Numbered from the stretch's first letter, positions 1 through 54,914 are shown. The stretch: 64,000 nt of DNA from Rhizophagus irregularis (GCF_026210795.1 NC_089435.1:2418001-2482000); one strand, 5' to 3'. Program-made: numbers and translations. The notes: generated by a model from the letters alone, not told the origin.

Positions 1-47
1 CAGGAAAAGAAAATAAAAACGCAGATGCCTTATCAAGAATAATATAA
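1..47 (+). CDS. C-terminus of retrotransposon Pol (RT-RNase H), partial
   Basis: The frame starting at 3 reads GKENKNADALSRII-stop (TAA 45-47). G-x-x-N-x-x-ADALSR is the canonical end of Ty3/Gypsy RNase H. Confidence 0.85.
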   Translation, partial: GKENKNADALSRII

Positions 48-83
48 ATAGATGGGTAAAAGAGTTACTTTTCAAAAATAAAA

Positions 84-323
84 ATGGAACAAGTGGTAAG
101 AAATACAAATCATAAAATAAAGGATATAATCGAAAATTTAGAAGGTATAACAAAGGAATTAAACAGGATAAATTATAACTATAAATTCAAAGCCAAAAAT
201 TTTGAAGATAGTGAAGAAAGACCATTAATATTGGAAACTCAAGGGGAAATATTACAAATAGAGGTGATATTAAGTAAAGTAAACAAGCTAAAATTATCAG
301 AATTATGTAAAAATGGGACCTAA
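84..323 (+). CDS. Small 79-aa ORF between RNase H and the kinase-integrase ORF, function unknown
   Basis: ORF track. Same frame as RNase H but separated from it by two stops (45-47, 57-59); overlaps the next ATG by 11 nt; looks helical/coiled-coil. Confidence 0.35.
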   Translation: MEQVVRNTNHKIKDIIENLEGITKELNRINYNYKFKAKNFEDSEERPLILETQGEILQIEVILSKVNKLKLSELCKNGT

Positions 324-2094
324 AATAATAATCATATGTGGAGTTGATGGTACTGGAAAAACATTCATTGTAAATAAACTTATAAAAGAATTTGAAAAAG
401 TAGGACAAAGTGTGAGGTTTAACACCTTTAAAAGGAAAAGAGAGGACAATGATAAGTATAAATTACCAAAGAAAGGTATAGAATGGGAATTCAGGAAGGA
501 AGTTGTTGAACAAATCAACAGGAGAATGGAAGAACATGATAATGAGGATTGGTTAATATTAGATAAAAGTCCCTATAGTGAGTACTTTTATCAACAAACA
601 CCATCATTCGACAGAGGATACATAACAAGATATGAGAACCACCTATTAGAAAAGGAAGTATTTAGGAACAAAAGGATAATTGATGAATCAATAGTGATAT
701 TTTTAGAAAATGAAAAATGTTGGGAAAATTACAAAGGTAGAGAATATTCGAAAAAGGATCAAGGACATAAAACATCATATCCATTATTAGATGAAGAAAG
801 ATATATGGAGATGGTGAAATCATTTAAAGAATGTCAAGATATTTACAAAGGAGAAAAATATGCTAATATTAAAATATCAAATAATGACACAGATTGGGAA
901 AGAGTATATAATAAAATAATAGAATTAGATGGAGATAAACCACCAATAGAGGTTAAAAATGTTGAGATTAAGGATAACATCAGGGTAACTGATGGTAAAA
1001 AGCATATTGAGAAAAATGGTAAAAACATCAGAATAATAGAAGATTTTGAAAAGATGGGAGCACTATATTTAGCTCACAGTCATGAATTATCGGCACATAT
1101 GGGAATCAAAAGTACTTATGATAATTTAAAAGATAAATATTATTGGGAAAATATGCTGAATGACGTTGAAAGATATGTAAGGACATGTGATGAATGTCAA
1201 AGAAGAGGAAAACCACAAGGGAAAAATGAATTACACCCAATTAAAGTAGTAGAACCATGGTATCAAATCGGGATTGACTTTGTTGGACCATTGAACACAA
1301 CAACAAATGGTAATAAATACATCATAGTTGCAATGGATTATTTTACAAAATGGCCAGAAGCCAAAGCAGTAAAAGAAGCAACTGCCAAAGAAGTATCAAA
1401 ATTTATTTATGAAGACATCATTTGTAGACATGGATGTCCAATGAAAATATTGAGTGATAGAGGAAGTCATTTCAATAATGAAATGATTAAGGAATTAATG
1501 GAAAAATTTAAAATTAAATGGAATTTTTCTACAAGTTATCATCCAGAGACAAACGGACTTGTTGAAAGATTCAACCGAACATTAGGTCAAGCATTAGCAA
1601 AATTATCAACCAAAGATGATTGGGATCAAAGGATAGCACCCATATTATTTGCTTACCGAAATAAAAAGCATAGTTCAACGAGAATTCGACCATTTTATTT
1701 AACATACGGAAGAAATGTACGGACAATAATGGATGAAAATATCAAAGAAATTAACCTAAACGATAGAATAGTTGGATTATTAGAAGAACTACCAAAAATC
1801 CGACATGAAGCCAAAGAACAAATACTGAAATCTCAAACAAAACAAAAAGAGTATCATGACAGAAAAATAAGCAAAGAACACACCTTTGGAATTGGAGATA
1901 AAATACTACTCTATGATAAAGCCAAAGCACAACAACTATCGGGAAAATTAGAATCAAAATGGTTGGGACCATTTTACATTCATGAAATACTACCGAATGG
2001 AGCTTATAGAATTAAAAATATTAAAGGTGTCATCAAGAAGATACCTGTAAATGGAGAATTATTAAAGACTTACCATACACCGATGAGTAAATGA
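313..2094 (+). CDS. Fusion protein: thymidylate/deoxynucleoside-monophosphate-kinase-like P-loop domain + Ty3/Gypsy integrase
   Basis: N-terminal IIIICGVDGTGKT (Walker A) and WLILDKSPYSEYFYQ (resembles the TMPK DR-x-x-x-S-x-x-x-YQ motif). C-terminal HHCC zinc finger (AHSHELSAH...CDEC), DDE core (IGIDFVG, ILSDRGSHF, NGLVERFNRTL) and KWLGPF (GPY/F). No chromodomain. Confidence 0.9.
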   Translation: MGPKIIIICGVDGTGKTFIVNKLIKEFEKVGQSVRFNTFKRKREDNDKYKLPKKGIEWEFRKEVVEQINRRMEEHDNEDWLILDKSPYSEYFYQQTPSFDRGYITRYENHLLEKEVFRNKRIIDESIVIFLENEKCWENYKGREYSKKDQGHKTSYPLLDEERYMEMVKSFKECQDIYKGEKYANIKISNNDTDWERVYNKIIELDGDKPPIEVKNVEIKDNIRVTDGKKHIEKNGKNIRIIEDFEKMGALYLAHSHELSAHMGIKSTYDNLKDKYYWENMLNDVERYVRTCDECQRRGKPQGKNELHPIKVVEPWYQIGIDFVGPLNTTTNGNKYIIVAMDYFTKWPEAKAVKEATAKEVSKFIYEDIICRHGCPMKILSDRGSHFNNEMIKELMEKFKIKWNFSTSYHPETNGLVERFNRTLGQALAKLSTKDDWDQRIAPILFAYRNKKHSSTRIRPFYLTYGRNVRTIMDENIKEINLNDRIVGLLEELPKIRHEAKEQILKSQTKQKEYHDRKISKEHTFGIGDKILLYDKAKAQQLSGKLESKWLGPFYIHEILPNGAYRIKNIKGVIKKIPVNGELLKTYHTPMSK

Positions 2095-2326
2095 TAACTA
2101 TCATCAATGGACTTAGAAAAATAAAGATAATTTATAATCATGTGAAATAAAATCACATGACATAAAAAGAATTTTCGAAAATAGGAAAAACTAATGAAAA
2201 TTTCCTAAGAAAGACCGAAGTGAAATCCGGTACAGGAAAACCGTAGACTTAACAAACACATGATAAACCGCAGATGTAGACGCAGCAAAAAGGAATATTT
2301 AAAACGCAACTGAGTCAAGTGACAAT

Positions 2327-2397
2327 GCATGTTTGATTTAGTGGTATAATTCGCACCTACCACTTCGAGACACGAGTTCGATTCTTAGAATAAATTT
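2327..2397 (+). ncRNA. Degenerate tRNA-Gly-like sequence (Pol III box A and box B) in the retrotransposon 3' UTR
   Basis: GCATGTTTGATTTAGTGGTATAATTCGCACCTACCACTTCGAGACACGAGTTCGATTCTTAG contains box A TGATTTAGTGG, an anticodon-loop-like CT-ACC-AC and box B GAGTTCGATTC. The stems are imperfect. Confidence 0.6.
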
Positions 2398-2419
2398 AAT
2401 GTGGGCATTAAATTTTTAT

Positions 2420-2431
2420 GTGGGGGATAGT
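2420..2431 (+). other. Polypurine tract (PPT)
   Basis: GTGGGGGATAGT lies immediately before the LTR's TGTAA. Confidence 0.75.
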
Positions 2432-3052
2432 TGTAATGCCGTAGTATACCTAGTAAATTTATTAATTGTGAGGCGCAGTATTACATTTAGTCTTAGTGTA
2501 TAAAATTTTAACTTATTTTTATTTTTATTTTAATTGGACCGAGAAGTCGTTAAACTAATAATCACATGGATCAAGGTAATTGGTCCGTGATGACCTTAAA
2601 CTATTAGTCACGAGATTTAAGGATAAATGAAGATCCGAAAGATACTAAATTGAATGAAATCAAGTGATCTGAGGTGTCAAGTGATTAATTTGTTGATCAC
2701 TACGTTAATATTATAAATCATAATTCAGGAGTTCATGATGATCAAATGGATACAAAATTAAGATAATGGAAATACTTTAAAACAATGGAAATACTTTAAT
2801 AATTTAAATCCATGAATCGAAATTATGAATTTAGTTACACAAAAACAAACATAAAAGGGCGTGAAGATCACCTTTTGGAAAGGACAGAGAGAGAGAGAGA
2901 AAATTGGACGAATTTTGTTATGAATTATTTATTTTATTATTTAATGTTATTAAACCAAGCATATTATTGTATTTATTTATATTATTAATAAAGAGTCATT
3001 TTGTTAATACCTGAGGTGGCAAACATAATTTTCTATGGGCTCAGGTGTTACA
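2432..3052 (+). repeat. 3' LTR (621 bp)
   Basis: Begins TGTAATGCC and ends GGTGTTACA (imperfect inverted termini). Contains a TATA-like CATAAAAG at ~2850 and AATAAA at ~2987. Confidence 0.8.
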
Positions 3053-3443: not shown

Positions 3444-4009
3444 TAGTGCTCCGCACGAGCCAGTCCAGCTCGAGCCGGCTCGCGAGCTAGGTATATCGAG
3501 CTGAGCTGAGCCGCGGCTCGTAATAAATTTGGCTCGGCTCATTCAAGCCGAGCTTTGATACAGCTCATTCGAGCTGGCTCGCGAGTTATGAGCTGGCTCG
3601 CGAGCTCCAGAACTTTTTTCTTTATTATTGCCGGCGTCACGTGATTTTTAATTTTGGCCGGAATTAAGTGATCGACATAGAAATTTCCTTTTTTGGAATC
3701 CTGTGCAACGTATTTCCCCATTTTTGATAAGAAATAAAATTGCCTTTTTTGGATTGTGTAACGTTACTCAGGTGTTCAAAAAAGGAAATTTCCGTGTCGA
3801 TTACTTAATTCCGGCCAAAATTAAAAAAATTACGAGAAATATGCAGAATTTGATAAAAGCTTGGCTCGGCTCGAGCCAAGCCACCTTAAAACTCGGCTCG
3901 GCTCGGCTCGAGGTTGGCTCGACATGAGCCAAGCTCGAAAATTCTAATCGAGCCGAGCCGGCTCGAATTTTGGCTCAGCTCGGCTCGAGCCGGCTCGTGC
4001 GGAGCTTTA
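3444..4009. mobile_element. hAT-type MITE (566 bp)
   Basis: TIRs TAGTGCTCCGCACGAGCC / GGCTCGTGCGGAGCTTTA. Perfect 8-bp TSD CATACAAT at 3436-3443 and 4010-4017. Many subterminal GAGCC/GGCTC motifs. Confidence 0.9.
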
Positions 4010-7227: not shown

Positions 7228-8731
7228 TTATTCTATAATTTGAAATATTTCATATTCTTCCACAGAAAATAAACCAGAAAGTTTAGTAGATTCTCTAATT
7301 TTTTTTTCGTAAGCCACCTTACAGCATTTACCACCGTATCCATAAAGAACAAGATCGATACCAAATGATGGACCAAAGCCATAATTATTATACGTAGCAT
7401 GTCCTTCATTTTCCACGCGACTTAAAATATAATTTTGCAAGTCGTCCCTATTCTTAAAAGAGAATATAAAACTATCTTTAGTAGTGGCATAAGAACCATC
7501 AGATTTCCATTCAATTGGATTATATCCACCAAAAATTTCTTCACTATGTTTCACTTTAATTATTGTCACAGTGCGAGATTGATTATCACAGATTTCATAA
7601 AATTTTTTAGTTGCAAATCCATCCCGAGTTCCACGAAGTAACAATTTGAAGTTGTACGTATTTTTTATCTCATCCGAATTTTCTAATCTATCGATCCATT
7701 TTGAGATTAATTCAGTATGTTGAATTGTAATGATATTAGAATCAATATTAATTTTCTAGTAGTAATACGAGGTTTTGATTTTTTACTTGATTGGATACTG
7801 GGCTTCAAAAAATATTTTAATAAATCTTTATATAACTCTTTTGGTAAAATTTTTTTATAGGGTAACACTTTGTCTGAAAATTCTTTAGAAGTTAAATTAT
7901 AGAATCTAATATGTGGAACGCAATGTTGTAAACTATTTTTCAAAGCATTAAAATCTTCTTTTGAAAAGTTTGTAGGATCAGAAGGAAGTTCTGGATTTTG
8001 TGCAAGTCCCCATCCAAGTACATCTTCCCATATTTGAATTTCATTCATTTGAAGAATATCACTTTGAATAAGTGAAACTAAAAGTTTTTCCGAAATTGAA
8101 GAAAAATTTGGAGATTTAAATATCTTAACTGGTTCTTTCGACGTTAAATCAGTACAAAATTTTTGAAGTTCCAAGAAAGAATCGTTCTCAAAACTTGTTT
8201 TATATATCAAATCAAAATTTTGTTCCATCCAATTTGCCTTATTTTCAACCAAAAAGGATTGTAAATAAGTGATTAATTCTTGGAGACCAAGTTCACTTCC
8301 AGCAACTAAGATTTTAATTATATCCGAAGTATCATATTCCTCTGAAGAAATTTTTCCACCATAAATATATCTAAAATAAAAAGTGTAAATTTTTTAAATT
8401 TTTTTTTTAAAAAAATACTTTATTATATAAAATCATTTTTGTAATTAAAATTCAATTATTTTCTTAATTCTTACCTTAATATTATTTGAAAAATTTTAGG
8501 TAAAATATTTGGTAATTTTATATGTACCAAAGTTCCATCATGTTTCTTTTTATTGGTTGACAAAATTCTTCTTAAACAATTAGAACGATAATGTAAGATA
8601 ACCATGTGAGCACGAAATATTTTTATATAAGGGTCTCCACCAACTTCAATAGTAACATCATAATATTCTTCATCATTTAAAATATCAAGTAAATTTTGTG
8701 ACAATTTCGTTAAAAAATTATTATTATTCAT
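7228..8731 (-). CDS. BTB/POZ-BACK-TLDc domain protein, 2 exons, with one apparent frameshift
   Basis: Exon 1 is 8731-8475 (DVTIEVG...FRAHMVIL), followed by a GT-AG intron 8474-8371. Exon 2 starts at 8370 (YIYGG...). TLDc motifs LLLRGTRDGF, GGYNP, GPSFG. One base is missing in an A-run near 7752-7755 between BACK and TLDc. Confidence 0.85.
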
Positions 8732-10294: not shown

Positions 10295-13200
10295 GTTAAA
10301 ACTATTTAGTATTACATTGTTGGCATTTACAGGTAATCATTACAATTATTATATAAATGCTTGCATCCACTATATAATTCAACTCCATTTTTAAAACCAC
10401 TTTGTAAATTTATGCTGCTTATTGAAGCAAACAAAAGGGTTTAACTGAATTCTTATCTATTTCTTTCTTATCTATATATATATTAGCCAAAATATCCATT
10501 GCACGCTCATCACCATTTTCTGCTGCTTCTTGATACCAATAAAAGGCTACTTCAAAATCCCTTCTTGTTCCTTTTCCATCATAATAACAATTGGCTAAAT
10601 TAAACATTGCATCTTTAAACCCATTTTCCGCTGCTTTTTGATACCAATAAAAGGCCTTTTCTAAATTTTTTTCTACTTCTTTTCCAATCCTATATTTATT
10701 AGCTAAATTAAACATTGTTTCTTTAACACCATTTTTTACTTCTATTTTATACAAAATGAAGGCATTTCTTAAATTCTTTTCTGTATCTTCTCTACTATAA
10801 TACCAATTGGCTAAATTATTCATTGCTTCTTTAATACCATTTTCTGCTGCTTTTTTGTACAAATGAAAGACTTCTTCTAAATTCTTTTCTGTCTTTTCTT
10901 CATTTTCATAACATATGGTTTGTTGCATTTTGATACAAACAAAAGGTTTTTTCTAAATTTTTTTCTGTTCCTTCTTCATTATAAAACATACTCATTGCTT
11001 TAATATGATCTTTTTCTGCTGCTTTTTGATACCAATAGAAGGCTTTTTCTAAATTCTTTTCTATTCCTTTTCCATTTTTATAAAATATGGCTAAATTATT
11101 CATTGCTATAATATGATCTTTTTCTGCTGCTTTTTGATACCAAAAAAAGGCTTTTTTTAAATTCATTTCTGTTCCTTTTCCATTTTCATAACTATTGGCT
11201 AATTCATTCATTGCATATTCAAACCCATTTTCCGCTGCTTTTTGATACCAATAAAAGGCTTTTTCTAAATTCTTTTTTGTTCCTTCTCCAATTTCATAAA
11301 ATATGGCTAATTTGTATATTGCAACTTCATGACCATTTTCCGCTGCTTTTTGATACCAATAAAAGGCTTTTTCTAAATTCTCTTTTGTTCCATGTCCAAT
11401 TTCATAAAATATTGCTAAATTAAACATTGCATCAGTAAACCCATTTTCTGCTGCTTTTTGATACCAATAAAAGGCTTTTTCTAAATTCTCTTTTGTTCCA
11501 TGTCCAATTTCATAAAATATTGCTAAATTAAACATTGCATCAGTAAACCCATTTTCTGCTGCTTTTTGATACCAATAAAAGGCTTTTTCTAAATTCTTTT
11601 CTATTCCTTTTCCATTTTTATAAAATATGGCTAAATTGTTCATTGCTTTAATATGATCTTTTTTTGCTGCTTTTTGATACCAAAAAAAGGCCTTTTCTAA
11701 ATTCTTTTCTGTTTTTTCTCCATTTTCATAACATATGGCTAAATTATTCATTGCATCGGTGAAATCATTTTCTGCTGCTTTTTGATACCAATAAAAGGCT
11801 TTATCTAAATTTTTTTCTGTTCCTTCTCCATTATAATACATACTGGCTAGATTAAACATTGCTTTAATATGATCTTTTTCTGCCGCATTTTGATACCAAT
11901 AAAAGGCTTTTTCTGAATTCTTTTCTGTTACTTTTCCATTTTCATAACTATTAGCTAAATTATACATTGCTTCTTTAACACCATTTTCTGCTGCTTTTTG
12001 ATACCAATAAAGGGCTTTTTCTAAATTATTTTCTGTTCCTTCTCCATTATAATACATACTGGCTAGATTAAACATTGCTTTAATATAATCTTTTTCCGCT
12101 GTTTTTTGATGCCAATAAAAGGCTTTTTCTAAATTCTTTTCCATTTCTCCTCCATTTTCATAGCATATTGCTAAATTAAACATCGCTTTAATATGATCTT
12201 CTTCTGCTGCTTTTTGAAACCAGTAAAAGGCTTTTTCTAAATTCTTTTCTGTTTCTTTTCCATTTTTATAACTATTGGCTAAATTAAACATTGCTTTGAT
12301 ATGATCATTTTCTGCTGCTTTTTGATACCAATAAAAGGCTTTTTCTAAATTCTTTTCTGTTCCTTTTCCATTTTCATAACATATAGCTAAATTAAACATT
12401 GCATATTTATCACTGTTTTCTGCTGCTTTTTGATACCAATAAAAGCTTTTTCTAAATTATTTTCTGTTCCTTTTCCTTTTTCATAACAAATGGCTAAACT
12501 ATTCATTGCCTCTTTGACACCATTTTCTGTTGCTTTTTGATACAATTGAAAGGCTTTTTTTGAATTCTTTTCTGTTTCTTTCAGATTTCTATAGCATATG
12601 GTTAAATTAAGCATTGCATCTTTATTGCCATTTTCTACTGCTTTTTGAAACCAATAGAGGGCTTTTTCTAAATTCTTTTCTGTTCCTTCTCCATTTATAT
12701 AACATATGGCTAAACTATTCATTGACTCTTTATCACCACTTTCTGCTGCTTTTTGATACCAATAAAAGGCTTTTTCTAAATTAATTTCTGTTCCTTTTCC
12801 ATTCCTATATTTATTGGCCAAATTAAACATTGCTTCTTTAACACCATTTTCTACTGCTTTTTGATACAAAATAAAGGCTTTTTTTAAATTCTTTTCTGTT
12901 CCTTCTCCATTATAATATCTATTGGCTAAATTATTCATTGCTTCTTTAATACCATTTTCTGCTGCTTTTTGATACAAATGAAAGGCTTTTTTTAAATTCT
13001 TTTCTGTTCCTTTTCCATTATAATACCAACTAGCTAAGTTGAACATTGCTTCTTTAACACCATTTTCTGCTGCTTTTTGATAACAATAAAAGGCTTGTTC
13101 TAAATCTTTTTTTGTTCCTTCTTCATTTTCATAACATATGGCTAAATTAAACATTGCTTCTTTAACACCATTTTCTGCTGCTTTTTGATACAAATGAAAG

Positions 13201-14179
13201 GCTTTTTCTAAATTAATTTCTGTTCCTTTTCCATTTTTATAACATATGGCTAAATTAAATATAGCTTCTTTAATACCATTTTCCGCTGCTTTTTGATACA
13301 AATGAAAGGCTTTTTCTAAATTCTTTTCTATTCCCTCTCCATTATAATACCTATTGGCTAAATTAAACATTGCTTCTTTAACACAATTTTCTGCTGCTTT
13401 TTGATACCAATAAAAGGCTTTCCTAAATCCTTTTCCATCCCTTTTCCATTTTCATAACATATAGCTAAATTAAACATTGCTTCCTTAACACCATTTTCTG
13501 CTTCTTTTTGATACCAATAAAAGGCTTTTTTCAAATTTTTTATTGTTCCTTCTCCATTTCTATAACATATGGCTAAATTAAACATTGCATCTTCATTACC
13601 GTTTTCTGCTGCTTTTTGATACCAATGAAAAACTTTTTCTAAATTCCTTTTTGTACCTTTTCCATTTTCATAACATATGGCTAAATTAAACATTGCTTTA
13701 ATATGATTTTTTTCTGCTGCTTTTTGAAACCAATGAAAGGCTTTTTCTAAATTCTTTTCTGTTCCTTCTCCATTATAATAGCATATGGCCAATTTATTCA
13801 TTGCTTTTTCATAACCATTTTCTGCTGCTTTTTGATACCAGTGAAAAGCTTTTTCTAAATTCTTTTCTGTTCCTTCTCCATTGTAATACCTTTTGGCTAG
13901 ATTAAACATTGCTTCAATATGATTTTTTTCTGCTGCATTTTGATATAAATAAAATGCTTTTTCTAAATTCTTTTTTGCTCCTTCCTCATCTCTATATTTA
14001 TTGGCTAAATTAAACATTGCTACTTTATCACCATTTTCGGTTAATTTTTCCAAAGAACTAATACATTCTTTACACCATAATTCTTCAATAAAAGGTTTAT
14101 TACAATATAAACAATTTTCGTTGTTTATTGTATCAGTATCTTTGTTTGAGATATTTAAATTACTCAAATTAGTTTCCAT
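10295..14179 (-). pseudogene. Zn-ribbon + ~34 Sel1-like repeat gene, frameshifted, kinase domain lost
   Basis: Four consecutive ORFs in different frames form one array of 36-aa AMFNLA..Y..G.G...NLEKAFYWYQKAAE repeats. The N-terminus METNLSNLNIS...CLYCNK...WCKEC is paralogous to 18911 and 27825. A decayed linker relic (TGCCAACAATGTAATACTAAA on -) lies at ~10295-10405. Confidence 0.85.
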
Positions 14180-18515: not shown

Positions 18516-18910
18516 ACGAATGGATGAACGATTCCTGATCTTCCCGATAAACATCCGTGAATATTAAATTCACTCACATCTCCTTCCCTTTTTACTTTTA
18601 AATTTTTTTTTCTTAAAAAAAAAAATTTTTCTTTAAACTTAATATTTCTCATCCATTACCCTTTTTTAAAAAATATATTATTTTGTTTTTTTTTAACTAC
18701 CCGCTATCTCCTTTTTTTTTAAAAAAAAAAACGTATTTGATTTTTTCTCGAAGCTTTTTCTTTTAAAAAACTTCTTTATATTCACCATTTTATTTTATTT
18801 TTTATTTTGTAGACCCACGTCTACTTTTGGTTAAATTATTCTCTTTTAATAACTTTATTCATTAAATATTAAAAAAAATTTGTTTTTTTTCAAGTAAAAT
18901 AAATAACCAA

Positions 18911-21900
18911 ATGGAAGCCAAAATTAGTGAATTAAATATTTCAGATAAAGATACTGATACAGTAAACATCATAAATTGTTCGTATTGCAATAAAACTTTT
19001 ACTGAAGAATTATATTGCAAAGAATGTATTAATTCTTTTGAAAAATTAGCAAAAAATGGTGATATTAAAGCAATGCTTAATTTAGCCATATGTTATAGAA
19101 ATGGAGATAAAACAGAAAATAATTTAGAAAAAGCCTTTTATTGGTATCAAAAAGCAGCAGAAAATGATGATAAAGAAGCAATGTTTTATTTAGCCAATAC
19201 ATATAGAAATGGAGAAGGGACAGAAAGGAATTTAGAAAAAGCCTTTTATTGGTATCAAAAAGCAGCAGAAAATGGTGTAAAAGCAGCAATGTTTTATTTA
19301 GCCAGGTGCTACAATTATGGAGTTGGAACAGATAGGAATTTAGTAAAATCCTTTAATTGGTATCAAAAAGCAGAAGAAAATGGTGTTAAAGAGGCAATGT
19401 ATTATTTAGCCTTATGTTATGGAAATGGAGAAGGGACACAAAAACATTTAATAAAAGCCTTTAATGGGTATCAAAAAGCAGCAGAAGATGGTGTTAAAGA
19501 AGCAATGTATTATTTAGCCACATGTTATAGAAAAGGAGAAGGGACACAAAAGAATTTAGAAAAAGCCTTTTATTGGTATCAAAAAGCAGCAGAAAATGGT
19601 GTTAAAGTGGCAATGTGTAGTTTAGCCATATGCTATGAAAATGGAGAAGGAACAGAAAAGAATTTAAAAAAGGCCTTTTATTGGTATCAAATAGCGGCAG
19701 AAAATGGATATGCAAATGCAATGTTTAATTTAGCCAATTCATATAGAAATGGAGATGGAACAGTAAAGAATTTAGAAAAAGCCTTATATTGGTATCAAAA
19801 ATCAGCTGAAAATGGTAATGAATTAGCAATGCTTAATTTACTTACTTATTATCATGAATATGGAGTAAAAACAGAAGGGGATTTAGAAAAATCTTTTAAT
19901 TTGATTCAAAATGCAGCAGAAAATGGTAATGAAGAAGCAATGTTTGATTTAGCCATATGTTATGAAAATGGAAAAGGAATAGACAAGAATTTAGTAAAAG
20001 CCTTTCATTGGTATCAAAAATTAGCAGAAAAAGGTAATAATGCGAATGCAATGTTTAATTTAGCCATATGTTATGAAAATGGAAAAGGAATAGAAAAGAA
20101 TTTAAAAGAAGCCTTTCATTGGTATCAAAAATCAGCAGAAAAAGAAGATGGTAATGTGGATGCAATGTTTAATTTAGCCAACTATTATCATGAAAATGGA
20201 TTAGGAATAGATAGGGATTTAGAAAAAGCCTTTGATTGGTGTCAAAAAGCAGCAAAAAGAGGTCATAAACAAGCAATGTTTAATTTAGCCACATGTTATG
20301 AAAATGGAGAAGGAACAAAAAAGGATTTAAAAGAAGCCTTTGATTGGTACCAAAAAGCAGTAAAAGATGATGATAAACAAGCAATGTTTAAATTAGCCGC
20401 ATGTTATGAAAATGGAGAAGGAACAGAAAAGGATTTAGAAAAAGCCTTTTATTGGTGTCATAAAGTAATAGAAACTATTAATGAAGAAGCAATGTTTTAT
20501 TTAGCCAATGAAAATGGAGAAGGAACAGAAAAGGATTTAAAAAAAGCCTTTTATTGGTGTCATAAAGCAACAGAAACTGTTAATGAAGAAGCAATGCATT
20601 ATTTAGCCAATAAATATAGAAATGGTGAAGGAACAGAAAAGAATTTAGAAAAAGCCTTTTATTGGTATCAAAAAGCAGCAGAAAATGGTAATACAAAAGC
20701 AATGAATGATTTAGCCATATGTTATAGAAATGGAATAGGGATAGAAAAGGATTTAGAAAAAGGCTTTTATTGGTATCAAAAAGCAGCAGAAAATGGTAAT
20801 ACAAAAGCAATGAATGATTTAGCCATATGTTATAGAAATGGAGTAGGAATAGAAAAGGATTTAGAAAAAGGCTTTTATTGGTATCAAAAAGCAGCAGAAA
20901 ATGGTTTAACTGATTCAATGCATAATTTAGCCATGTGTTATGAAGATGGAGAAGGAACAGAAAAGGATTCGGAAAATGCCTTTCATTGGTATCAAAAAGC
21001 AGCAGAAAATGATAATGAATTAGCAATGTATAATTTAGCCATACATTATGAATATGGAGTAGGAACAGAAATGAATCCAGAAAAAGCCTTTCAATGGTAT
21101 CAAAAAGCAGCAGAAAATGGTCATGAAGTTGCAATGTTCAAATTAGCTATATATTATGAAAATGGAATAGCAATAGAAAAAAAATTAGAAAAAGCCTTTT
21201 ATTGGCATCAAAAAGCAACTGAAAGTAACAAAGTAAATTTTAAAAATGAAGTTGAATTATGCAATGAATGTGAACAACATATTGATTACCAGTGGTGCCA
21301 ACAATGTAATGCTAAACGATTTCAACAAGGTTTTTCAAAGTGGACTAGTAATAATAAATTTATTGATAAATTTATTCAAGAAGCACAACTTAATGCCAAA
21401 AGCAGTTATGAATTTTTGGAGTGGATACCTTATAATAAATTGTTAAGCATTAATTATTATGATAAAGGAGGATTTAGTGAAATTCATAAAGCTATCTGGT
21501 CAGATGGGCCTGTCTTTAGTTGGAATTTTGATAAACAGCAGTGGAATAGACAAACAAATCATGAGGTTATTCTTAAAATGCTTAATAATTCATCAGATGA
21601 ATTAGATGAATTTCTGAATGAGGTATAGTATTTATATTTAATGGTAAATTTTATTTTCCTTTGCAATAATTTAATAATTTTTTTTATAATATTGATTATA
21701 TAGTGGAAGTATCATTATAATTGTCAGAAAAAATCATTTTCAAAATTTGTTCAATTCTTTGGAATTACCCAAGATCCAAATACTTCAAAATATATGATAG
21801 TAATGAGTTATGCAAAAAAAGGAAGTTTTAGAAAATGTTTATATGATATAATTAAATTTAAGTGGCAAGACAAGTTACAATTATTGAAAAAAATTATATT

Positions 21901-22675
21901 AGGACTTGAAGTAATCCATGAATCAAAATTAACTCATGGTGATTTTCATGATGGTAATATTTTAATGTCAGAAAATTACAATGAGATATTTATTATTGAT
22001 TTAGGATTATGTAAACCTATAAATAGTAATTTACAAGATTCTGACAATGTAGTTACAGAACATTGTGGAGTTGTACCTTATATGGCGCCTGAAATATTAA
22101 GAAATAAACCCTATACACCAGCAAGTGATATTTATAGTTTCTCAATGATAATGTGGGAATTTACATCAGGTATTCCTCCATTTAATGGTGAAGCATATGA
22201 TGAACTTACCTCGAAAATTTGTCAAGGGGATCGTCCTAAAATTGATGAAAATACTCCACAATGTTATATAGATTTAATGAAAAAATGTTGGGATTCAGAT
22301 CCTTCCAGTAGACCTAATATAAAAATGCTCAACAATATTATATCTAAATGGGTTGTATGTATTAATGATTATTATATATTGAATAGGGATGGAAATCGTA
22401 TCTTTGAAGTACCTAATATTGATAAGAAATTAAAAAATGATATGCTTGAATTTGTAAAAGCAGACAAAGCTTTAACACAAGCAGAAGCAAATTTAACACA
22501 AGAAGAAGCAAATTTAACTCAGGAAGCAAATTTAACTCAGGAAGCAAATTTAACTCAGGAAGCAAATTTAACTCAAGAAAAAATACATTCACAAGCATAT
22601 TCTACAAGTTTTACAAATTCTATAAAGCATGAAACTTATATTCAAGAAGAGTCTCAGGAGATTAATCATATTTAA
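18911..22675 (+). CDS. Zn-ribbon + 20 Sel1-like repeats + tyrosine-kinase-like protein kinase (~1227 aa, 2 exons)
   Basis: Exon 1 18911-21622, GT-AG intron 21623-21703, exon 2 21704-22675 in frame. Kinase motifs KGGFSEIHKA, VILK, HGDFHDGN, IIDLG, YMAPE, SDIYS. Confidence 0.92.
22471..22578 (+). repeat. Coding 18-21-bp minisatellite (QEANLT)n in the kinase C-tail
   Basis: GAAGCAAATTTAAC(A/T)CA(A/G) repeated about 5 times. Confidence 0.85.
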
Positions 22676-27824: not shown

Positions 27825-29646
27825 ATGGAAACTAAATTGAGTAATTTAAATACCCCAGACAAAGATACTAATACATTAATCAACAAAAATTGTTTATATT
27901 GCAATAGATCTACTAAAGAATTATTGTGTAAAGAATGTATTATTTCTTTTGGCAAATTAGCCGAAAATGGTGATGAAGTAGCAATGTTTATATTAGCCAA
28001 TAGCTATTATTTTGGGAAGGAACAGAAAAGAATTTAGAAAAAGCCTTTCATTGGTATAAAAAAGCAGCAGAAAATGGTAATGAAAGTGCAATGTTTAATT
28101 TAGCCACATTTTATGAAAATGGAGAAGGAATAGAAAAGAATTTAGAAAAGGCCTTTTATTGGTATCAAGAAGCAGCAGAAAATGGTAATGAAAAGGCAAT
28201 GTATGATTTAGCCATGTGTTATTGTAATGGTGAAGGAACAGAAAAGAATTTAGAAAAGGCCTTTTATTGGCGTCAAAAAGTAGTAGAAAGAAATAAAGTA
28301 AATCCTAACAATGATGTTGGATTATGTAATGAATATAAACAACCATATACTGATTACCAGTGGTGTCAACAATGTAATACTAAATGTTTTCAGCAAGATT
28401 TTTTAAAGTGGACTAGTAAAAATGAATCAAGGAGCACAACTAAATGCTAAAAATAGTTATGAAATTTTAGAGTGGATACCTTATAATAAATTGTCAAATA
28501 TTAATTACCATGATAAAGGAGGATTTAGTGAAATTCATAAAGCTATCTGGTCAGATGGGCCTATTTATAGTTGGAATATTGACAAAGAACAATGGGATAG
28601 ACAAACAGATTATGAGGTCATTCTTAAAACACTTAATAATTCATCAAGTTTAAATAGCAAATTTCTGGATGAGGTAAAGTACTTATATTCAATTGTACAT
28701 TTTTTTTCTTTTGCAAAAATTTAATAATTATTTATCATTTATATAGTGGAAATATCATTATAATTGTCTGAAAAAGTCATTTTCAAAATTTATTCAATTT
28801 TTTGGATTTACCCAAGATCCATATAATTTAAATTATATAATAATAATGAGTTATGCAAAAAAAGGAAATGTGAGAAAATGTTTGCCTAATATAGTTAAAT
28901 TTAAGTGGCAAGAAAGGCTACAATTATTGGAAAAAATTATATTAGGGCTTAAAGTAATCCATGAATCAAATTTAACTCATGGTGATTTTCATGATGGTAA
29001 TATTTTAATGTCAGATAATTACAATGAGTTATTAATAATTGATTTAGGATTATGTAAACCTATGAGTGATTTACAAGATTCTGATAATAAAGTTAATGAA
29101 ATTTATGGAGCTTTATCTTATATGGCGCCTGAAATATTAAGAAGAAATCCCTATACTCAAGCAAGTGATATTTATAGTTTTTCAATGTTAATGTGGGAAT
29201 TTACATCAGGTATTCCTCCACTTAATAATAAAGCACATGATCTTGATCTTATCTTGGATATTTGTAATCAAGAAAAACGTCCTGAAATTATAAAAAATAT
29301 TCCAAAATGTTATATAGATTTAATGAAAAAATGTTGGGATGTAAATCCTTCAAATAGACCAACCGTAGTGATGCTTGAAAATATTCTATCTGGATGGGTT
29401 AAATGTACTAATGCATATTATAAGTTTAACAGGGATGGTGATTATAAATTTGAAGTACCTGATATTGATAATCAATTAAAAAATGATATGTTTGAATTTG
29501 TAGAAGCAAACAAAGCATTAGGACGAGGATAAATAAGCACTTCTGATATATACATCATCCACAAGCATATTATACAAGTCGCAAACTTACTGAAATTGTA
29601 GTTAAAGAAGATTCTGAGTGTTTGGAATGTATAGTTGAAAATTGAT
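27825..29646 (+). pseudogene. Zn-ribbon + ~3 Sel1 repeats + TKL kinase, frameshifted paralogue of 18911-22675
   Basis: Same N-terminus and same intron position (28674-28746); HGDFHDGN, DLG, YMAPE. Frameshift at ~28015, deletion at ~28428 (FIDKFI lost), and frameshift at ~29530 before an HPQAYYTSRKL tail. Confidence 0.85.
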
Positions 29647-45329: not shown

Positions 45330-46457
45330 TTAATCAATTTCTTTCAAAGGATACGGATTTTTAAAGAGATTGGCTTTCAATCCTTCATTAGGAAGTATTG
45401 ATCTGACATAATCGAATGTTTTCCCTGCTATGCAAGCATAATGCAAGTCTCGTGGATCAAATCGAGGAGTTTTGATTAACTTCCTATATGTATGTTTAAG
45501 TTGTCTTTTCTCACTTTCCGTACGACAATTAATAAAGCCATAATCTACATTCACGGAAGGTACGAGACGTGCGGATTCGCTTAGCGCATATTGCTTGAGG
45601 TCGTAAACACTTTTATTTGGTTGATTATGCCCACGAACTTCTATCTTGTTTTCTGATAACCAATTACAATTATTACTGCTACAATATTTCCTTAATAAAT
45701 CCAATATTGTTCCAGATAAGTAAGCATCATGGAATTCATCGACCTTACAGTCCTCTTGAATAATTAGTTCCTTATACAAATCAGCCAACCGTCTTTCTTC
45801 TATCTCTCCTAAATGATCACTACCAAATTTACAAGAACAAAACCCAAAGTCAATCCAATTTTGTTGATCAATCCCCGGAATATGATCACTGAGTATAGTT
45901 ATATAGAACAAGCAAACAATACGTTTTGTTTCTGGAAGAGATTTGATGGGAACTGTTAGATCATGCTCGGAAAGATATGGTTTAACCATTGCATGAAGCT
46001 TATTCGCTATTTCTTTATTAGATTTTTCGCCCTCGTATTTTCGTAGACCCTGCAACACATGTTCATTTTTTAAGAACCATTGATAGTATCCGCTAGTGGT
46101 GTTCGAATCTTCAAAAGCCTTTTTGATGTGAAATGGCAAATTTCCACTTTTCCACCATGAATGGAGCTGAGAAGCACTGCATTCTATATACTTTATAAGA
46201 CCACCATACAAGCCTAAAAGCATTGATTCTTCCTCAGGATATACGCAATTGCAAAAGCCGTATTCATATCGCACCGCGTAGTTCGTGGGAAGTGTATCAC
46301 TAAAAACATCCTTAACAAGAATTTCCGCAGACCTTGAAGGACAATCTCGTACATGATTAGGATAGTCTTCTTTTTGGCACGATTTACTACAGTAATACTT
46401 AGTATGACATCTCGAACAACGTTGAGTTGTAGGTTTTTCACATATACTGCATTTCAT
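45330..46457 (-). CDS. MYND zinc-finger protein with a threefold-repeated C-terminal domain (intronless, 375 aa)
   Basis: CSIC...CSRC...YCSKSCQ..D...H...C MYND signature in one uninterrupted ORF. Confidence 0.9.
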   Translation of the reverse strand: MKCSICEKPTTQRCSRCHTKYYCSKSCQKEDYPNHVRDCPSRSAEILVKDVFSDTLPTNYAVRYEYGFCNCVYPEEESMLLGLYGGLIKYIECSASQLHSWWKSGNLPFHIKKAFEDSNTTSGYYQWFLKNEHVLQGLRKYEGEKSNKEIANKLHAMVKPYLSEHDLTVPIKSLPETKRIVCLFYITILSDHIPGIDQQNWIDFGFCSCKFGSDHLGEIEERRLADLYKELIIQEDCKVDEFHDAYLSGTILDLLRKYCSSNNCNWLSENKIEVRGHNQPNKSVYDLKQYALSESARLVPSVNVDYGFINCRTESEKRQLKHTYRKLIKTPRFDPRDLHYACIAGKTFDYVRSILPNEGLKANLFKNPYPLKEID

Positions 46458-48453
46458 TTTTTTTTACAATATTCGAGACGAAAAAAAGAATGATGTATTT
46501 ACCAACAATTTCGTAAAAAATGTCAATATAAATATATAAATATTGACTGATACATGTAACACAATTAAGCCCCATGACGGTCCGAAATTTTATCTAAATA
46601 TAGTTTAAACTCGTACAAGTACGTTCCGTCAGAATGTCGCACAAGTTATCGTATGATAATAATGATACTCAATATATAAACATTAAAATCATTGAAACAT
46701 GCTTACATTATTATTTAATTTTCTTTGTACACAGTGGTCTAACCTTATCAGCGATGTGTTTTTTTTAAGAAATGTAAAAATTAGTACGAAAACGTTAATA
46801 AGATTTTTTTAAATTAATTAATGATCATGGTTTAAACTCGAACCAAAACTGAAATGGTTTATCTTTTGAGCGATGGTTTTATTTCAAATGTTCAATCCAG
46901 TAAACCGAACTGAACTATAATAAAATCTTTTGATGAAAATTCGATTCAATATCAATTAATTATGATGAAAATAATTGGTAACGTAATAAATTTACTGTAA
47001 AAAGTTTTTTTATTTTATTTAAACAAATTCTATAAATTTTTTGTTCCATTTTTAATTGTAAATAAATTTATTAATAAATATTGATTATGTTTTAATTTTG
47101 AGTGTAAATGATTTATGTAAAATTTAATATTAAATTTATTTAATTATACAGTATAAAAGCAACAAATCAAAGGAAATTGATAAATTTTTTTAGTTTGGTT
47201 TATTTCGAGAAAAAAGTTGTGCTTCAACTGAATCGTGATTCACTGATTCAAAGTGTGAACAAATTGAGTGTGAATTAGTTCAGTTCGAAAATCAGTTTAA
47301 TAAATTATGACCGTCCATGGTCATATATCAACTTTTATAAACATAATATATTTATGGAGTATCACTAAGGTCAAAGTCGATAATCGCTTATCTATTATTA
47401 TCATTATTGGGATGATCTATAATCCTCTGATGTGTTTAGATCTAGAATTGTCGATGCGAGTAGCGAATCATAAAAAACCCTCAAAATCAATTTAAAATTA
47501 AAAATTAAAAAAATATGCGTACGTAACAAAAATAAACAAATTTATAATTAGATCTTACATTTTAAACTTTTAAGTAATGTTACATCATTTGTTTTTTTGT
47601 GATTCACGATTTTTTAAATTGAAAGAAAATACGTGGGAAAAAAATATAGCAAAGTGTACAAAAGTGATCAAACATAAAAAAGTCATGTCAGTTCTTACTA
47701 ATGAAGGAATTGAAAGTATAACATACTAAAGAAATAATAATAAAAAGATGGTAACTGTAGATGATAGTTGATATTTTCATCTTATTCTTTATTTATATTG
47801 TTACTGCCAACGTTTTAATAAAAATGATCCAAAATATAGACAATATTTATCATAATCATTTCTACTCATAAAAATATGACCATTAATCACTTTCTTCTCT
47901 AAATTAATCTTTCAAATCGCAACCGTGATGGAGATTGGATCGATTGGGTCCGTGCAGTTGGCGCAACGTGCATTGTTTTAAATGATATGCGCGATATTTC
48001 ATAACGGCGCTTACAAGCTATGATTTTATTTTATTTATAAGAATGCATATGGCTTCATGAATTTTTATAGCGCTTGTTCATTATAACTTCTAGCAGTACT
48101 CTTAATGACAAAATTTAGTACACTACACATATAATCTAATTTTTTTTTTATATTAGTTATTTTATGGTTTTTTATGTATTATCATCTTAAATATTACACA
48201 AATTATTATATATAAATTTCTTTGATTTTTGCAAAGAATATCATTTTTGCGCCCCCATCATTAGTGTTATAAAAGCGTAAATTGTAATTGGACAAATTTG
48301 ATTCACAAGTGAGATATCATGTTATTTATTTAATGATTGGTTAGAATAAAAAATACACATAAATATTCAATTTCTTAAAAGGCAAATATATATATATATA
48401 TGAAACGGTGCAAATACAAATAACAAATACATAAAATATAATCAGTTGGTTGA

Positions 48454-49587
48454 TCAAATATCTTTCAAAGGATACGGATTTTTAAAGAGCTCGGCTTTCA
48501 ATACTTCATCAGGAAGAATGGATTTGACATAATCAAATATTTTTCCTGCTAAGCAAGCTTCATGTAAATCCCGTGGATCAAATCGAGGAGTTTTGATTAA
48601 CTTCCTATACATATGTTTAAATTGCCTTTTCTCATCTTCCGTACGACAATTTATAAAGCCATAATCTACATACACAGGAGGCACGAGACGTGCAGATTCA
48701 CTCAACGCATACTGCTTGAGATCGTAAACACTTTTATTTGGTTGATGGTATCCACGAACTTCTATCTTGTTTTCTGATAGCCAATTGCAATCATTACTGC
48801 TACAATTTCTCCTTAACAAATTCAATATTGTTCCAGATAAGTAAGCATCATGGAATTCATCGACCTTACAGCCTTTTTGAACGATTAGATCTTCATAAAA
48901 ACTAGCCAACCGATTTTCTTCCGTCAATCTTAAGTAATCATTGTAATCATCACCAGATTTACAGGAGCAAAACCCAAAGTCAATCCAATTTTGTTCTTCA
49001 ATCTTTACAATATATCCACAGAGTATTGTCACATAGAATGCAAAAACATTACGTTTTGATTCTGGAAGAGATTTGATGGGAATTGTTTGATCATGCTCGG
49101 AAAGATATGGTTTAACCATTCCATAAACCTTATCCGCTATTTCTTTATCAGATTTTTCGCCCTCGTATTTTCGTAGACCATGTAACACATGTTCATTTTT
49201 TAAGAACCATTGATAGTATGCGTTGATGAAGTTCGCATCTTCAAAAGTCTTTTTAATGTGAAATGCCAAATTCCCACTTTCCCACCATGAATGGAGCTGA
49301 GATTTACTGCAATTTAAATACTTTATAAGGCCCTGATACAAGCCTAAAAGCTTTGATAGTTCCCCGGGATGCATGCAGTTGTAAAAGCCGTATTCATATC
49401 GCACTGCGTTGTCAATAGGAATCAAATCTTTATAAACATAATCAACAAGAATATTCACAGACTTTGAAGGACACTCTTGTACATGATTAGAATAGTCCTT
49501 TTTTTGGCACGATTTACTACAGTAATACTTAGTATGACATCTCGAACAACGTTGAATTGTAGATTTTTCACATATACTGCATTTCAT
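48454..49587 (-). CDS. MYND zinc-finger protein, tandem paralogue (377 aa; true start probably 49587)
   Basis: Colinear and highly similar to 45330-46457. The ATG of MKCSIC is at 49587. About 200 bp of upstream sequence is also duplicated. Confidence 0.9.
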   Translation of the reverse strand: MKCSICEKSTIQRCSRCHTKYYCSKSCQKKDYSNHVQECPSKSVNILVDYVYKDLIPIDNAVRYEYGFYNCMHPGELSKLLGLYQGLIKYLNCSKSQLHSWWESGNLAFHIKKTFEDANFINAYYQWFLKNEHVLHGLRKYEGEKSDKEIADKVYGMVKPYLSEHDQTIPIKSLPESKRNVFAFYVTILCGYIVKIEEQNWIDFGFCSCKSGDDYNDYLRLTEENRLASFYEDLIVQKGCKVDEFHDAYLSGTILNLLRRNCSSNDCNWLSENKIEVRGYHQPNKSVYDLKQYALSESARLVPPVYVDYGFINCRTEDEKRQFKHMYRKLIKTPRFDPRDLHEACLAGKIFDYVKSILPDEVLKAELFKNPYPLKDI

Positions 49588-49823
49588 TTTACAATATTCG
49601 GGACGAAGAAAGAATGATGTATTTATTAACAATTTTATAAAAATGTTATTATCAATATACTGATACATGTAACACAGTTTCGTCTGAAATTGATGATCTT
49701 TTAATCTAAATATAGTATTAAACTCGTACAAGTATGTTCCGGTCAGAATGTCGCACTGATTATCATATGATAACTAGTTTGGTTCAGCTATCACTGAGTG
49801 AACTAAACTATGGTTAGTTAGTT

Positions 49824-52715: not shown

Positions 52716-54914
52716 TTAAAATTTGAATGAGAAAAGTTTATTAAAAAACTTATTTTGAAGTCTTTTTAATTTATTTTTTGCTGACTCATATCCTTGTTTG
52801 GCAGATTTTTCATACCAATAAATCGCTTTATCTATATCTTTTGCAATTCCATTTCCTTTTTCATACATTAAAGCAAGATTATATTGTGCTAAATCATGTC
52901 CTAAATTTGCAGCATTTTGATATAATTCAAATGCTTTTTGTTTATCAATTTTAGTTCCAATACCATTATTATAACAATATCCCAACATCATTAATCCTAT
53001 TATATGTCCTTCTTCAGCTGATTGTTTAAACAATTCAAAAGCTTTATTATAATCTTTTTCAACACCAATTCCATTTTTATATAAAATACCAAGATTATAC
53101 ACTGCACCTATATTTCCATTATTTGCAGCTTTTTCACTATATTCAAAAGCTAATTTTTTATTTTTTATAGTTCCATATCCATAAAAATAACACTCACCAA
53201 CAAAATTTTGTGCTAATGTATGATTTTTTTCTGATGCATTAATAAACAAATTAAATGCTTTATCATCATTTTTACTTGTTATAATTCCATAAAAATTAAA
53301 ATATCCAAGAATAAAAATAGAATTTGAACTATTTTGATTATTTAATAACCAATTATAAAATTCTTGTGAATTTAAATTATGATTATTAAAATATTCAATA
53401 ACTTGCTGCTTTAATAATTTCAAACTGATTCCTTTATTTTCTAATTTATAAATAAAATCATTTATTTCATCAACTATAATGTTAAAATCTTTTTCAGTTG
53501 AAAGATTTTCTTGTTCACTTGATATTGCCATAGAATCAATTTCTTTAGTATTCATTTTATCAAAATTTTGAATAAGTTGAGATAAATCTCCTTGTAATTC
53601 TGAACTATTAGTACTTAAAGAAGTCTCATTAAGTTCTTGTTCATTTGATATTTCATGATTTTCTACTATTACATCTGATTTTGTAATTATTGCCTTTAGC
53701 CAATCAACTACTTGATATATAGTTGGACGATTATCTGGTTCCCCATCCCAACATTCTAAAACCAAACATAATTTAGAATTAATAATATTTAGAATATAAA
53801 ATTTAAAAATTAAAATATTACTCACCGGTATAAATTTTAATATATTCTTCAGGAGTATCAGGAACAACAGTTTCTCTAAGACCTTGTAAAATTTCCACAG
53901 CTAAACCAACATCATATTCTTCATCCTCAACATAAAAAGGAGGCTGCCCACTAGATATTTCCCAAAATAATACGCCTATACTATAAATATCACTTTTTTC
54001 ATTTAATGAGAACATTTGTGTTGATTGATTATTATTGTCTCTTCGTCTACTAAAGCTTTTTGGATCGACATAAGGAATCACACCAAATAATTTAGATTGA
54101 AGATTAGATGATGTTCCAATTCTTTTAGATAATCCAAAATCTGCTAATTTGATTGTGTTATTACGGACTAGTATATTACAGGAGTGCTATTAAAGAAAAA
54201 TATAAATATATTTAAATTTTTTTTTTAAAATTAATAATACAAATACATTACCAAATCACGATGCACTATTTTTTCATTATGTAAGCATGATACGGCACAA
54301 GATAACTGGTATGCCATATTATATTTGTCATCCCAAGTAAGATTGTTAAAATTTTTCTTTAAATAACTTCGAAGAGTACCACCGTCGGCGTATTCTAATA
54401 CTAACCGATAATTATTATGATTTTCTAATGAATAAAAGAAGTAATTACTAAATAAACTTTTGTAAAATTTTGCGATTAAAAGAATATTATATTTATCAAA
54501 TGTGATGTTAATAATACCTAACTCAAGTTTTGTTATTCCATAGCAACTAATAATGTTATCATGGAAATCAACTTTACGTTGAATTTTTAACTGAATAAAA
54601 AAATAAAATATTTGAAATAAATATATTAGATAAAAATACATCGACGAAAAAAAATGTATTATACTGCATTAAAATACCTCACGAACGATTTCTTTCATGG
54701 TGAAGTTATTAAGACTAATAAACGATTTTAATGCAACTAGTTTTCCTGAATTTTTCCAATTTGCACGATATACGTTTCCGAAACCTCCAGTACCAATATG
54801 TTGAATATTATTAAATCCTTCATATTCATAAAATTTTAAATGTTCTTTATCAACAGCTTCTTCAATCCAATTAACCCATTCATTTGTATTATTTGTATTT
54901 TCGGTATCTTGCAT
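52716..54914 (-). CDS. TKL protein kinase with C-terminal Sel1-like repeats (5 exons, ~627 aa)
   Basis: Exons 54914-54678, 54590-54518, 54424-54252, 54186-53826 and 53755-52716 are in phase. Motifs GTGGFG, VALK, HRDLHSCN, ADFG. About 5-6 Sel1 repeats. Confidence 0.92.

Follow-up and report, generated by a model that had tools for sequence, protein, structure and literature searches.

The stretch of Rhizophagus irregularis DNA analysed here (GCF_026210795.1 NC_089435.1:2418001-2482000; one strand of 64,000 nucleotides (nt), hereafter the window) begins inside a transposable element. The start of the window is almost certainly the 3′ half of a multicopy Gypsy-type long terminal repeat (LTR) retrotransposon, in which reverse transcriptase (RT)-RNase H, a protein of 79 amino acids (aa) and a kinase-integrase occupy three separate open reading frames (ORFs). 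The element carries the following features, in window coordinates.

1..47, plus strand: C-terminal end of RT-RNase H (...ADALSRII) with its stop TAA at 45-47, in frame 3; the upstream part of the element lies outside the window
52..81, plus strand: micro-ORF of 9 codons, from ATG 52 to TAA 79-81, with a putative role
84..323, plus strand: conserved 79-aa small ORF, a predicted two-helix hairpin, in the same frame as RNase H
96..300, plus strand: candidate intron, marked by its signals GTAAG (96-100), GCTAA (287-291) and CAG (298-300)
305..310, plus strand: ATG-TAA start-stop, 2 nt ahead of ATG 313, read from the sequence
313..945, plus strand: kinase domain with P-loop GVDGTGKT and LDKSPY motif, the N-terminal part of the 593-aa ORF
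946..2094, plus strand: integrase with HHCC zinc finger, D322-D382-(35)-E418 core and GPF/SH3-like end, assigned from motifs and Pfam
1399..2445, minus strand: spliced contigs of antisense RNA, whose GT-AG introns lie near 1558-1656, 1756-1883 and 1990-2360; from runs guessed to be RNA
2419..2430, plus strand: polypurine tract, read from the sequence
2432..3052, plus strand: 3′ LTR of 621 bp, TGTAA...TTACA, read from the sequence; a step in depth and loose ends mark 2430 and 3053

The first-pass annotation had described an RNase H that ends at ADALSRII with two in-frame stops, a 79-aa ORF behind it, and then a kinase-integrase ORF in another frame whose own ATG stands at the N-terminus of the kinase, and each of these points holds. 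Frame 3 reads GKENKNADALSRII, TAA (45-47), IDG and a second in-frame TAA (57-59). The kinase-integrase ORF of 593 aa (313-2094, frame 1) overlaps the small ORF by 11 nt, and its ATG lies nine residues before the P-loop. Measured from the preceding stop, ATG 313 stands at -11 nt and ATG 84 at +36 nt, and each is contained in an identical 9-mer, TAAAAATGG (79-87 and 308-316). The micro-ORF starts 4 nt after the RNase H stop and ends 2 nt before ATG 84, and inside the small ORF there is no ATG in any frame between 87 and 304. A second copy of the element was not found within the 64-kb window.

According to the accessible portions of the sources (PMC3248453, PMC4427930; the papers cited below are likewise used for their accessible portions), the Ty3/Gypsy Pol is one polyprotein that contains protease and RT as well as RNase H and integrase. 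Our element shares with this group the TG...CA form of the LTR, the polypurine tract, and an integrase with HHCC, DD(35)E and a GPY/F module; in the 593-aa ORF, Pfam places Integrase_H2C2 and rve behind the kinase. The order Gag, protease, RVT_1-type RT, RNase H, integrase is also that of Ty3/Gypsy, as read from the metagenomic locus L008 and from the R. irregularis Pol model P0171 (GET61173.1; Retrotrans_gag, protease, RVT_1, RT_RNaseH), which is tied to the window by its last 14 residues, identical to the RNase H end in the window. No chromodomain occurs among the 22 Pfam rows at E<=1 for the window, nor in the L008 integrase. The feature that the element lacks is an integrase in the RT-RNase H frame, which is absent from the window and from 12/12 related loci. 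Therefore, we consider it a Gypsy-type variant and not a canonical member, with a kinase and small ORFs placed between RNase H and integrase and not behind integrase.

The separation of RNase H and integrase is a fixed trait of this family and not decay. We compared the junction in four runs from four studies, aligned on positions 1-520, one of which is possibly the source of the window. In all four, the dominant contig (depth 50-821, covering at least 1-347) differs from the window over 1-347 solely by G244A, so that the stops, the starts and the micro-ORF are unchanged. A low-depth diverged copy seen in two runs has lost ATG 84 and retains both TAA codons. High-depth contigs of a sister family diverge after position 45 and, as inferred from loose ends, would read TGA with T45 at the same codon. 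Furthermore, in a 47-member protein cluster, 10 of the 15 listed members start with MGPK and none carries RNase H, and close copies of the small ORF encode 79 aa in 8/9 cases, the other extending to 87 aa. The first-pass annotation had asked whether the stop after ADALSR and the 79-aa ORF are conserved in other copies, which they are; the contrary case that it named, sister copies with one continuous RT-RNase H-kinase-integrase frame, was not encountered in the DNA read. A search for long fusions, in itself weak evidence, gave a single match among 399 candidates, P0071, which runs from gag to the kinase and has no integrase. Copy-specific decay or an assembly error is thus an extremely improbable source of the split. 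Fungal LTR copies are often decayed, and one compared run may be the one from which the window was built; however, the junction is identical in four studies and many annotated copies, the same split occurs in relatives at 53-60% kinase identity, and the integrase ORF is unbroken and retains D-D(35)E.

Three gene models, P0022, P0062 (R. clarus) and P0104, speak against the split, since they join the RNase H end, the kinase and the integrase. In P0022 and P0062 the last kinase helix and the first integrase helix are missing, and these joins, known from protein models alone, look like predicted introns.

In the public annotation, the models P0009, P0060, P0010, P0022, P0062 and P0029 appear to bridge separate ORFs with the flanking helices dropped, and at no fewer than 8 loci the 79-aa ORF is entered as an uncharacterised gene in its own right.

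A kinase profile search of metagenomes returned 14 loci (L001 to L014) from 193 candidates, at 53-60% identity. The integrase is reached in 12 of them, L003 and L013 stopping short, and in 12/12 it has an ORF of its own, with an in-frame stop 0-10 codons ahead of the ATG. The gaps between the upstream stop and this ATG are -14, -20, -14, +46, +3, +8, -1, -28, -4, -4, -8 and 0 nt (within -28..+8 nt in 11/12), and the frame relation takes all three values (5/2/5); by the tree these loci represent about four or five lineages, not twelve independent cases. The first Met of the integrase occupies one alignment column in the nine loci with the zinc finger on the contig; for L001, L002 and L009 the argument from the Met is circular, as nothing but the N-terminal motif identified the integrase there. 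In at least four lineages (P0171; L010/L013/L014; P0172 with three cluster mates; P0148/P0156), the RNase H stop falls 1-2 residues past the motif AD[AF][LM]SR. The kinase is fused to RNase H in L002, L007, L008 and L009, is fused to integrase in the window, and is free between the two in L010, L013 and L014, loci of one family, where it follows RNase H after spacers of 41, 51 and 123 nt with a change of frame. Because these spacers vary in length and frame, we regard them as non-coding. The kinase is a movable module in these arrangements, and the constant trait is the position of the integrase outside the RT-RNase H frame.

In the kinase tree, 12/23 inner branches are open, the window family sits on a long branch, and the order of fusion and split is not resolved; the RT-RNase H tree, from which 8/24 rows were dropped for motif failure, gives no placement of the clade. 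Because RNase H columns were part of the profile used to search representatives, unrelated Gypsy RNase H makes up most of the 150 rows obtained, and a pattern match left 78/150 unclassified. No relative of the element was found in the viral contigs scanned, and the prokaryote genomes gave one distant locus at 25% identity, which was not used.

The comparison of loci also bears on recoding, in which readthrough plus frameshift would still yield one RT-RNase H-kinase-integrase polyprotein. We consider this very unlikely. Its appeal is that the upstream junctions look recoded or split, with TGA-CTA between gag and protease in L008 and a -1 step between protease and RT there and also in L013. However, the window has two in-frame TAA codons and a change of frame, the spacers vary in length and frame, the initiator Met is conserved, and none of the RNase H, kinase and small-ORF stops tested has an in-frame slippery heptamer at a distance of 45 nt or less. 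Because the integrase gaps include all three frames, no single frameshift or readthrough explains the split.

At the upstream junctions themselves, gag and protease are parted in L008 (372-400) by an in-frame TGA followed by CTA, which is a readthrough-like context. In L008 (880-930) and L013 (37-80), the protease ends with Lys-stop and RT continues in the -1 frame, with AAGTCTTGGC in common; a canonical -1 slippery site at this junction of L008 failed a strict test and was rejected.

The kinase is recognised more by its fold than by its sequence. The N-terminus of the 593-aa ORF gives a weak Pfam match to P-loop/thymidylate kinase (18.3 bits against a gathering threshold of 27), and the L008 kinase, with 18.6, is likewise below the cut-off of thymidylate kinase (PF02223). 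A structural model (predicted local distance difference test, pLDDT, 83, from 11 sequences) superposes on the Staphylococcus aureus thymidylate kinase (TMK) with Z 14.4 and a root-mean-square deviation of 3.8 A over 175 residues, and matches the Giardia deoxyadenosine kinase with a Foldseek E of 3.6e-6. Its nearest Atlas clusters are phage TMK-like, and the matches include TMK or deoxynucleoside kinase (dNK) proteins of phages or large viruses. All these matches are at 9-20% identity, with dNK rows ranking beside TMK, and a sequence search of the PDB gave P-loop matches only. The predicted structure therefore conforms to a thymidylate/deoxynucleoside-kinase (nucleoside monophosphate kinase) fold with a P-loop. 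It resembles the thymidylate kinase family in fold and differs from it in its low identity, its Pfam score below the cut-off and its DKSPY motif, which replaces the usual DR/ERS motif of the TMK/dNK family. By analogy with the dUTPases of other retroelements, such a kinase would contribute to making dNTPs for reverse transcription.

In P0160 (a 71-member cluster), P0251 and P0228, a distant relative of the kinase occurs as a fusion with a NUDIX hydrolase.

Among the closest parallels are the LTR elements with a dUTPase or a third ORF (bdelloid Juno/Vesta/TelKA, fungal and planarian), which share with ours a captured enzyme of nucleotide metabolism and extra ORFs, among them coiled-coil ones (PMC5408684, PMC6431247). 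In those elements, the dUTPase lies between protease and RT, ORF3 follows pol, and the integrase is kept in pol (PMC5408684, PMC6431247); here, in contrast, the enzyme has a TMK/dNK-type fold and the extra ORFs split pol. Captured domains are also described in 10.64898/2026.05.21.726589. The separate ORFs reported in the accessible portions of PMC3248453, PMC4427930, PMC2582038, PMC5911963 and PMC13468544 are gag/pol or an extra RNase H, and the accessible portions of papers on transposons of arbuscular mycorrhizal fungi (AMF) (10.1101/2021.03.30.436303, PMC11075540, PMC11952901) describe no element architecture. We found neither a Gypsy integrase in its own ORF nor a TMK-like kinase in an LTR element in the literature covered, which lay outside Repbase, Dfam, GyDB, the transposable element library of PMC11075540, supplements and most subscription papers. 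Within that coverage, the conserved split-integrase Gypsy architecture is new.

The slot ahead of the integrase is often filled by a small ORF. The 79-aa ORF of the window resembles an 81-aa ORF between kinase and integrase in L009 (E=4e-5); the two have a common start sequence, TAAAAATGGAACAA, the TAA of which is the kinase stop in L009. A profile of three sequences, searched over 43-142 aa only, matched 23 clusters among 111 candidates, 21 of them of 69-89 aa; the clusters of L009 and L003 match by construction. The family has 8 invariant columns over 24 sequences at 26-96% identity. The 79-aa protein has no Pfam family at the cut-off and is predicted to form two long helices (pLDDT 83, predicted template modelling score 0.39); its best Atlas score is 0.80, its best structural match (Z 8.7) is among generic helical hairpins, and neither gives a function. 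The 79-aa ORF is, on its pattern of conservation, a gene, the member of a conserved family of predicted helical hairpins. Other small ORFs occupy the same slot.

L001 863-1012, L002 2254-2412, L004 679-831, L007 977-1120 and L012 634-780: second conserved small-ORF family, unrelated to the first, 47-52 aa, hydrophobic with a YHC motif, no Pfam match
L005 746-847: third small ORF, 33 aa

In L003 (788-1140), the kinase stop is followed by a broken second kinase C-terminus in another frame and then by a small-ORF homolog, and no integrase is present in the 70 nt left after it.

The small ORFs are poor in ATG. In eight of them, 6 ATG were observed against 37.4 expected from the long ORFs of the elements, and 3 out-of-frame ATG against 20.8 expected from codon shuffling. 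Among 38 trinucleotides the depletion is strongest for ATG, which ranks first also within each of two unrelated classes (1 against 6.2; 1 against 11.8). Kinase ends (44 against 49.9) and integrase starts (49 against 43.8) show no such depletion. Two points reduce the weight of these counts. The eight ORFs are related and form about three classes, so that the pooled P values overstate the significance and one ORF per class gives 2 against 8.1; and the small ORF of the window taken alone does not differ significantly from codon shuffles (1 against 3.2, P=0.10).

We propose that the integrase would be made from its own AUG by termination-reinitiation combined with scanning, a proposal for which the probabilities stand about level. 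After the RNase H stop, small subunits would stay on the RNA and resume scanning. The relay in the window would run from TAA 45-47 over 4 nt to the micro-ORF, over 2 nt to AUG 84, and later past AUG-UAA 305-310 to AUG 313. Some subunits, which the micro-ORF may relay, would initiate at AUG 84 and produce the 79-aa protein, and others would pass AUG 84 and initiate at AUG 313 after crossing 220 bases free of AUG; alternatively, ribosomes could restart at AUG 313, 11 nt back from the small-ORF stop. By the rules of scanning, AUG may have been stripped from the small ORFs in all frames because subunits scan through them toward the integrase AUG. The free kinase-integrase would then need a way into the particle other than as a portion of Gag-Pol.

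In five loci without a small ORF, from three lineages, the integrase AUG lies -4..+3 nt from the kinase stop, and other AUGs stand 10-58 nt upstream, an arrangement that has the pattern expected of direct termination-reinitiation. Stop and start overlap as AUGA in L002, L010, L011 and L012 and as UAAUG in L008. Moreover, A at -3 is found in 15/24 separate starts against 23/70 internal Met codons (p=0.016).

Reinitiation of the type that uses a TURBS (a ribosome-binding site upstream of the point of termination) depends on a UGGGA motif, complementary to 18S rRNA, upstream of the junction, and in victorivirus-type stop-restart a pseudoknot lies directly ahead of it. The overlapping or close stop and start of such systems is found at 11/12 integrase starts here. 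Stop-restart after long ORFs is known in fungal viruses and non-LTR retrotransposons (PMC5972666, PMC10275272). The victoriviruses (HvV190S), the hypovirus CHV1, the caliciviruses, SART1 and LINE-1 resemble our element in their overlapping or adjacent stop and start, with overlaps of up to 28 nt or short spacers; they differ from it in that here no TURBS motif or stable structure was found at the junctions and up to three cistrons stand in a row. No case of termination-reinitiation for the integrase of an LTR element was found in the literature covered. Caulimoviruses, which to our knowledge have neither integrase nor LTRs, are like our element reverse-transcribing, and differ in having the transactivator TAV, of which no counterpart was identified here. 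Their pregenomic RNA contains tightly spaced, slightly overlapping ORFs that are read by reinitiation (PMC5972666).

Several observations weigh against this proposal. UGGGA occurs within 100 nt upstream of 3/24 starts and not in the window, and no stable structure was found at 14 junctions, where fold z-scores, from pseudoknot-free energies, range from -2.7 to +2.2 and are mostly near zero. The context of AUG 84 is strong and should limit leakage. Furthermore, L008 also has gag, protease and RT in frames of their own; the RNase H stop may therefore be reached by few ribosomes, and with one restart after another the yield of integrase would be low. The efficiency of restart in hypovirus is below 5% (PMC5972666). 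Finally, the depletion of AUG fits a subgenomic RNA with leaky scanning equally well.

Such a subgenomic RNA, less probable in our judgement than reinitiation and still a serious competitor, would begin inside or just after RNase H, arise from an internal promoter or through splicing at a donor close to the 5′ LTR, and carry the small ORF and the kinase-integrase, the second being reached by leaky scanning. It would explain the AUG-free small ORFs and solve the problem of stoichiometry. In the RNase H-kinase fusions L001, L002 and L007, an internal Met in AAAATGG context lies about 22 residues past ADALSR; this Met (Lys-Met-Asp/Glu; L001 52, L002 1442, L007 123) is near the starts of the free kinases and is a possible internal start. 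In addition, rotifer LTR elements are reported to express their additional ORFs from spliced mRNAs (PMC5408684). However, fusions of the L009 type lack the internal Met, the window has AUGs at 25 and 52 before AUG 84, and in the families without a small ORF, where the integrase ATG lies -4..+3 nt from the kinase stop and upstream AUGs are not depleted, a restart would still be needed.

Splicing is the remaining route by which AUG 313 could be exposed. An acceptor at CAG 300 could be joined to the donor at 96, which adds MEQV-NYVK, or to a distant donor, and we regard either as improbable. The first-pass annotation had proposed the 96-300 intron, and its signals are indeed there: the donor GTAAG, the branch-like GCTAA and the acceptor CAG are present and removal of 96-300 would join the ORFs in frame, and like signals are uncommon by chance, appearing in only 29/2000 codon shuffles under criteria set post hoc. 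The host also splices GTAAG...AG introns in antisense RNA of the same element, and in some gene models what look like introns connect kinase and integrase. On the other side, the 96-300 intron leaves the RNase H stop in place and would delete a conserved ORF, the L009 homolog of the small ORF has no GT at the donor position, and in a decayed copy the candidate donor is altered by A98G and G100A. An acceptor with a branch motif precedes 1/24 separate starts, which is that of the window itself, against 8/70 internal Met controls, so that splicing is not the rule of the clade.

Four runs, X17, X18, X19 and X20, were guessed as RNA and are not recorded as such. Only X17 covers the small ORF (54-307), and the lack of cover in X18-X20 is no evidence. 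A 95-301 joint, which the 96-300 intron would leave, is not listed in X17, where contigs drop rare forms. A joint 78-308 through the 9-bp repeat occurs at depth 15 in X17 and at depth 4 in X19, against 0/4 of the junction-comparison runs. It removes the small ORF, so that the kinase ATG takes the position of ATG 84, and may reflect a rare copy carrying this deletion or a template switch. Of the earlier view that the integrase is expressed separately by reinitiation, a subgenomic RNA or splicing, the separate expression agrees with the own start and the clade-wide split, reinitiation with scanning gains support, the subgenomic RNA stays a candidate, and the intron is weak.

Two further observations come from the same runs. 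A joint 63-305 was seen in X17 and is not listed in the four junction-comparison runs. Antisense spliced contigs (X18, X20) run from the 3′ LTR across the integrase, possibly starting near 3007-3040; two of their GT-AG introns are common to runs of two studies (X18, X20), and the antisense exons seen contain no ORF of more than 73 codons.

The window beyond the element has 26% GC and contains Sel1-repeat, kinase and BTB/TLDc-type genes; no tRNA genes were found in the window. Together with proteins 97-98% identical to ones that bear the name Rhizophagus irregularis, this content assigns the host to the Glomeraceae. Expanded host families lie at 7228-8393, 10419-14179, 18866-22675, 28004-29532, 45330-49773 and 52716-54668, several of them frame-broken: BACK/TLDc, long Sel1-like arrays with protein-kinase ORFs, and two related zinc-finger ORFs, where the labels Sel1, kinase and zinc finger come from motif reading. 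A G+C-rich region at 3450-4000 has short GAGCC/GGCTC repeats and an internal inverted repeat (3645-3827) and is similar to a miniature inverted-repeat transposable element. At 61977-63996, units of about 664 bp are arrayed in tandem, and each has 27 bp in common with the LTR (2505-2531).

An integrase inside the Pol polyprotein is the accepted way in which LTR elements and retroviruses package integrase and fix its ratio to reverse transcriptase. A multicopy lineage in which the integrase is cut loose needs another route of translation and packaging. We suggest, tentatively and as a possibility more doubtful than not, that Pol has turned operon-like in these elements: integrase, captured kinase and interchangeable small proteins would be cistrons read by stop-restart and scanning without a known reinitiation element, and the integrase would be packaged apart from Gag-Pol, with a possible part for the 79-aa protein as adaptor or transactivator. 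The junctions, with gaps of -28 to +46 nt, three frames, and small ORFs present or absent, form a natural series for the study of reinitiation after long eukaryotic ORFs, and a nucleotide kinase is added to the enzymes captured by retrotransposons. For the genomes of AMF, the finding means that annotation treats these intact elements as broken, bridges them by predicted introns, or lists their small ORF as an orphan host gene.

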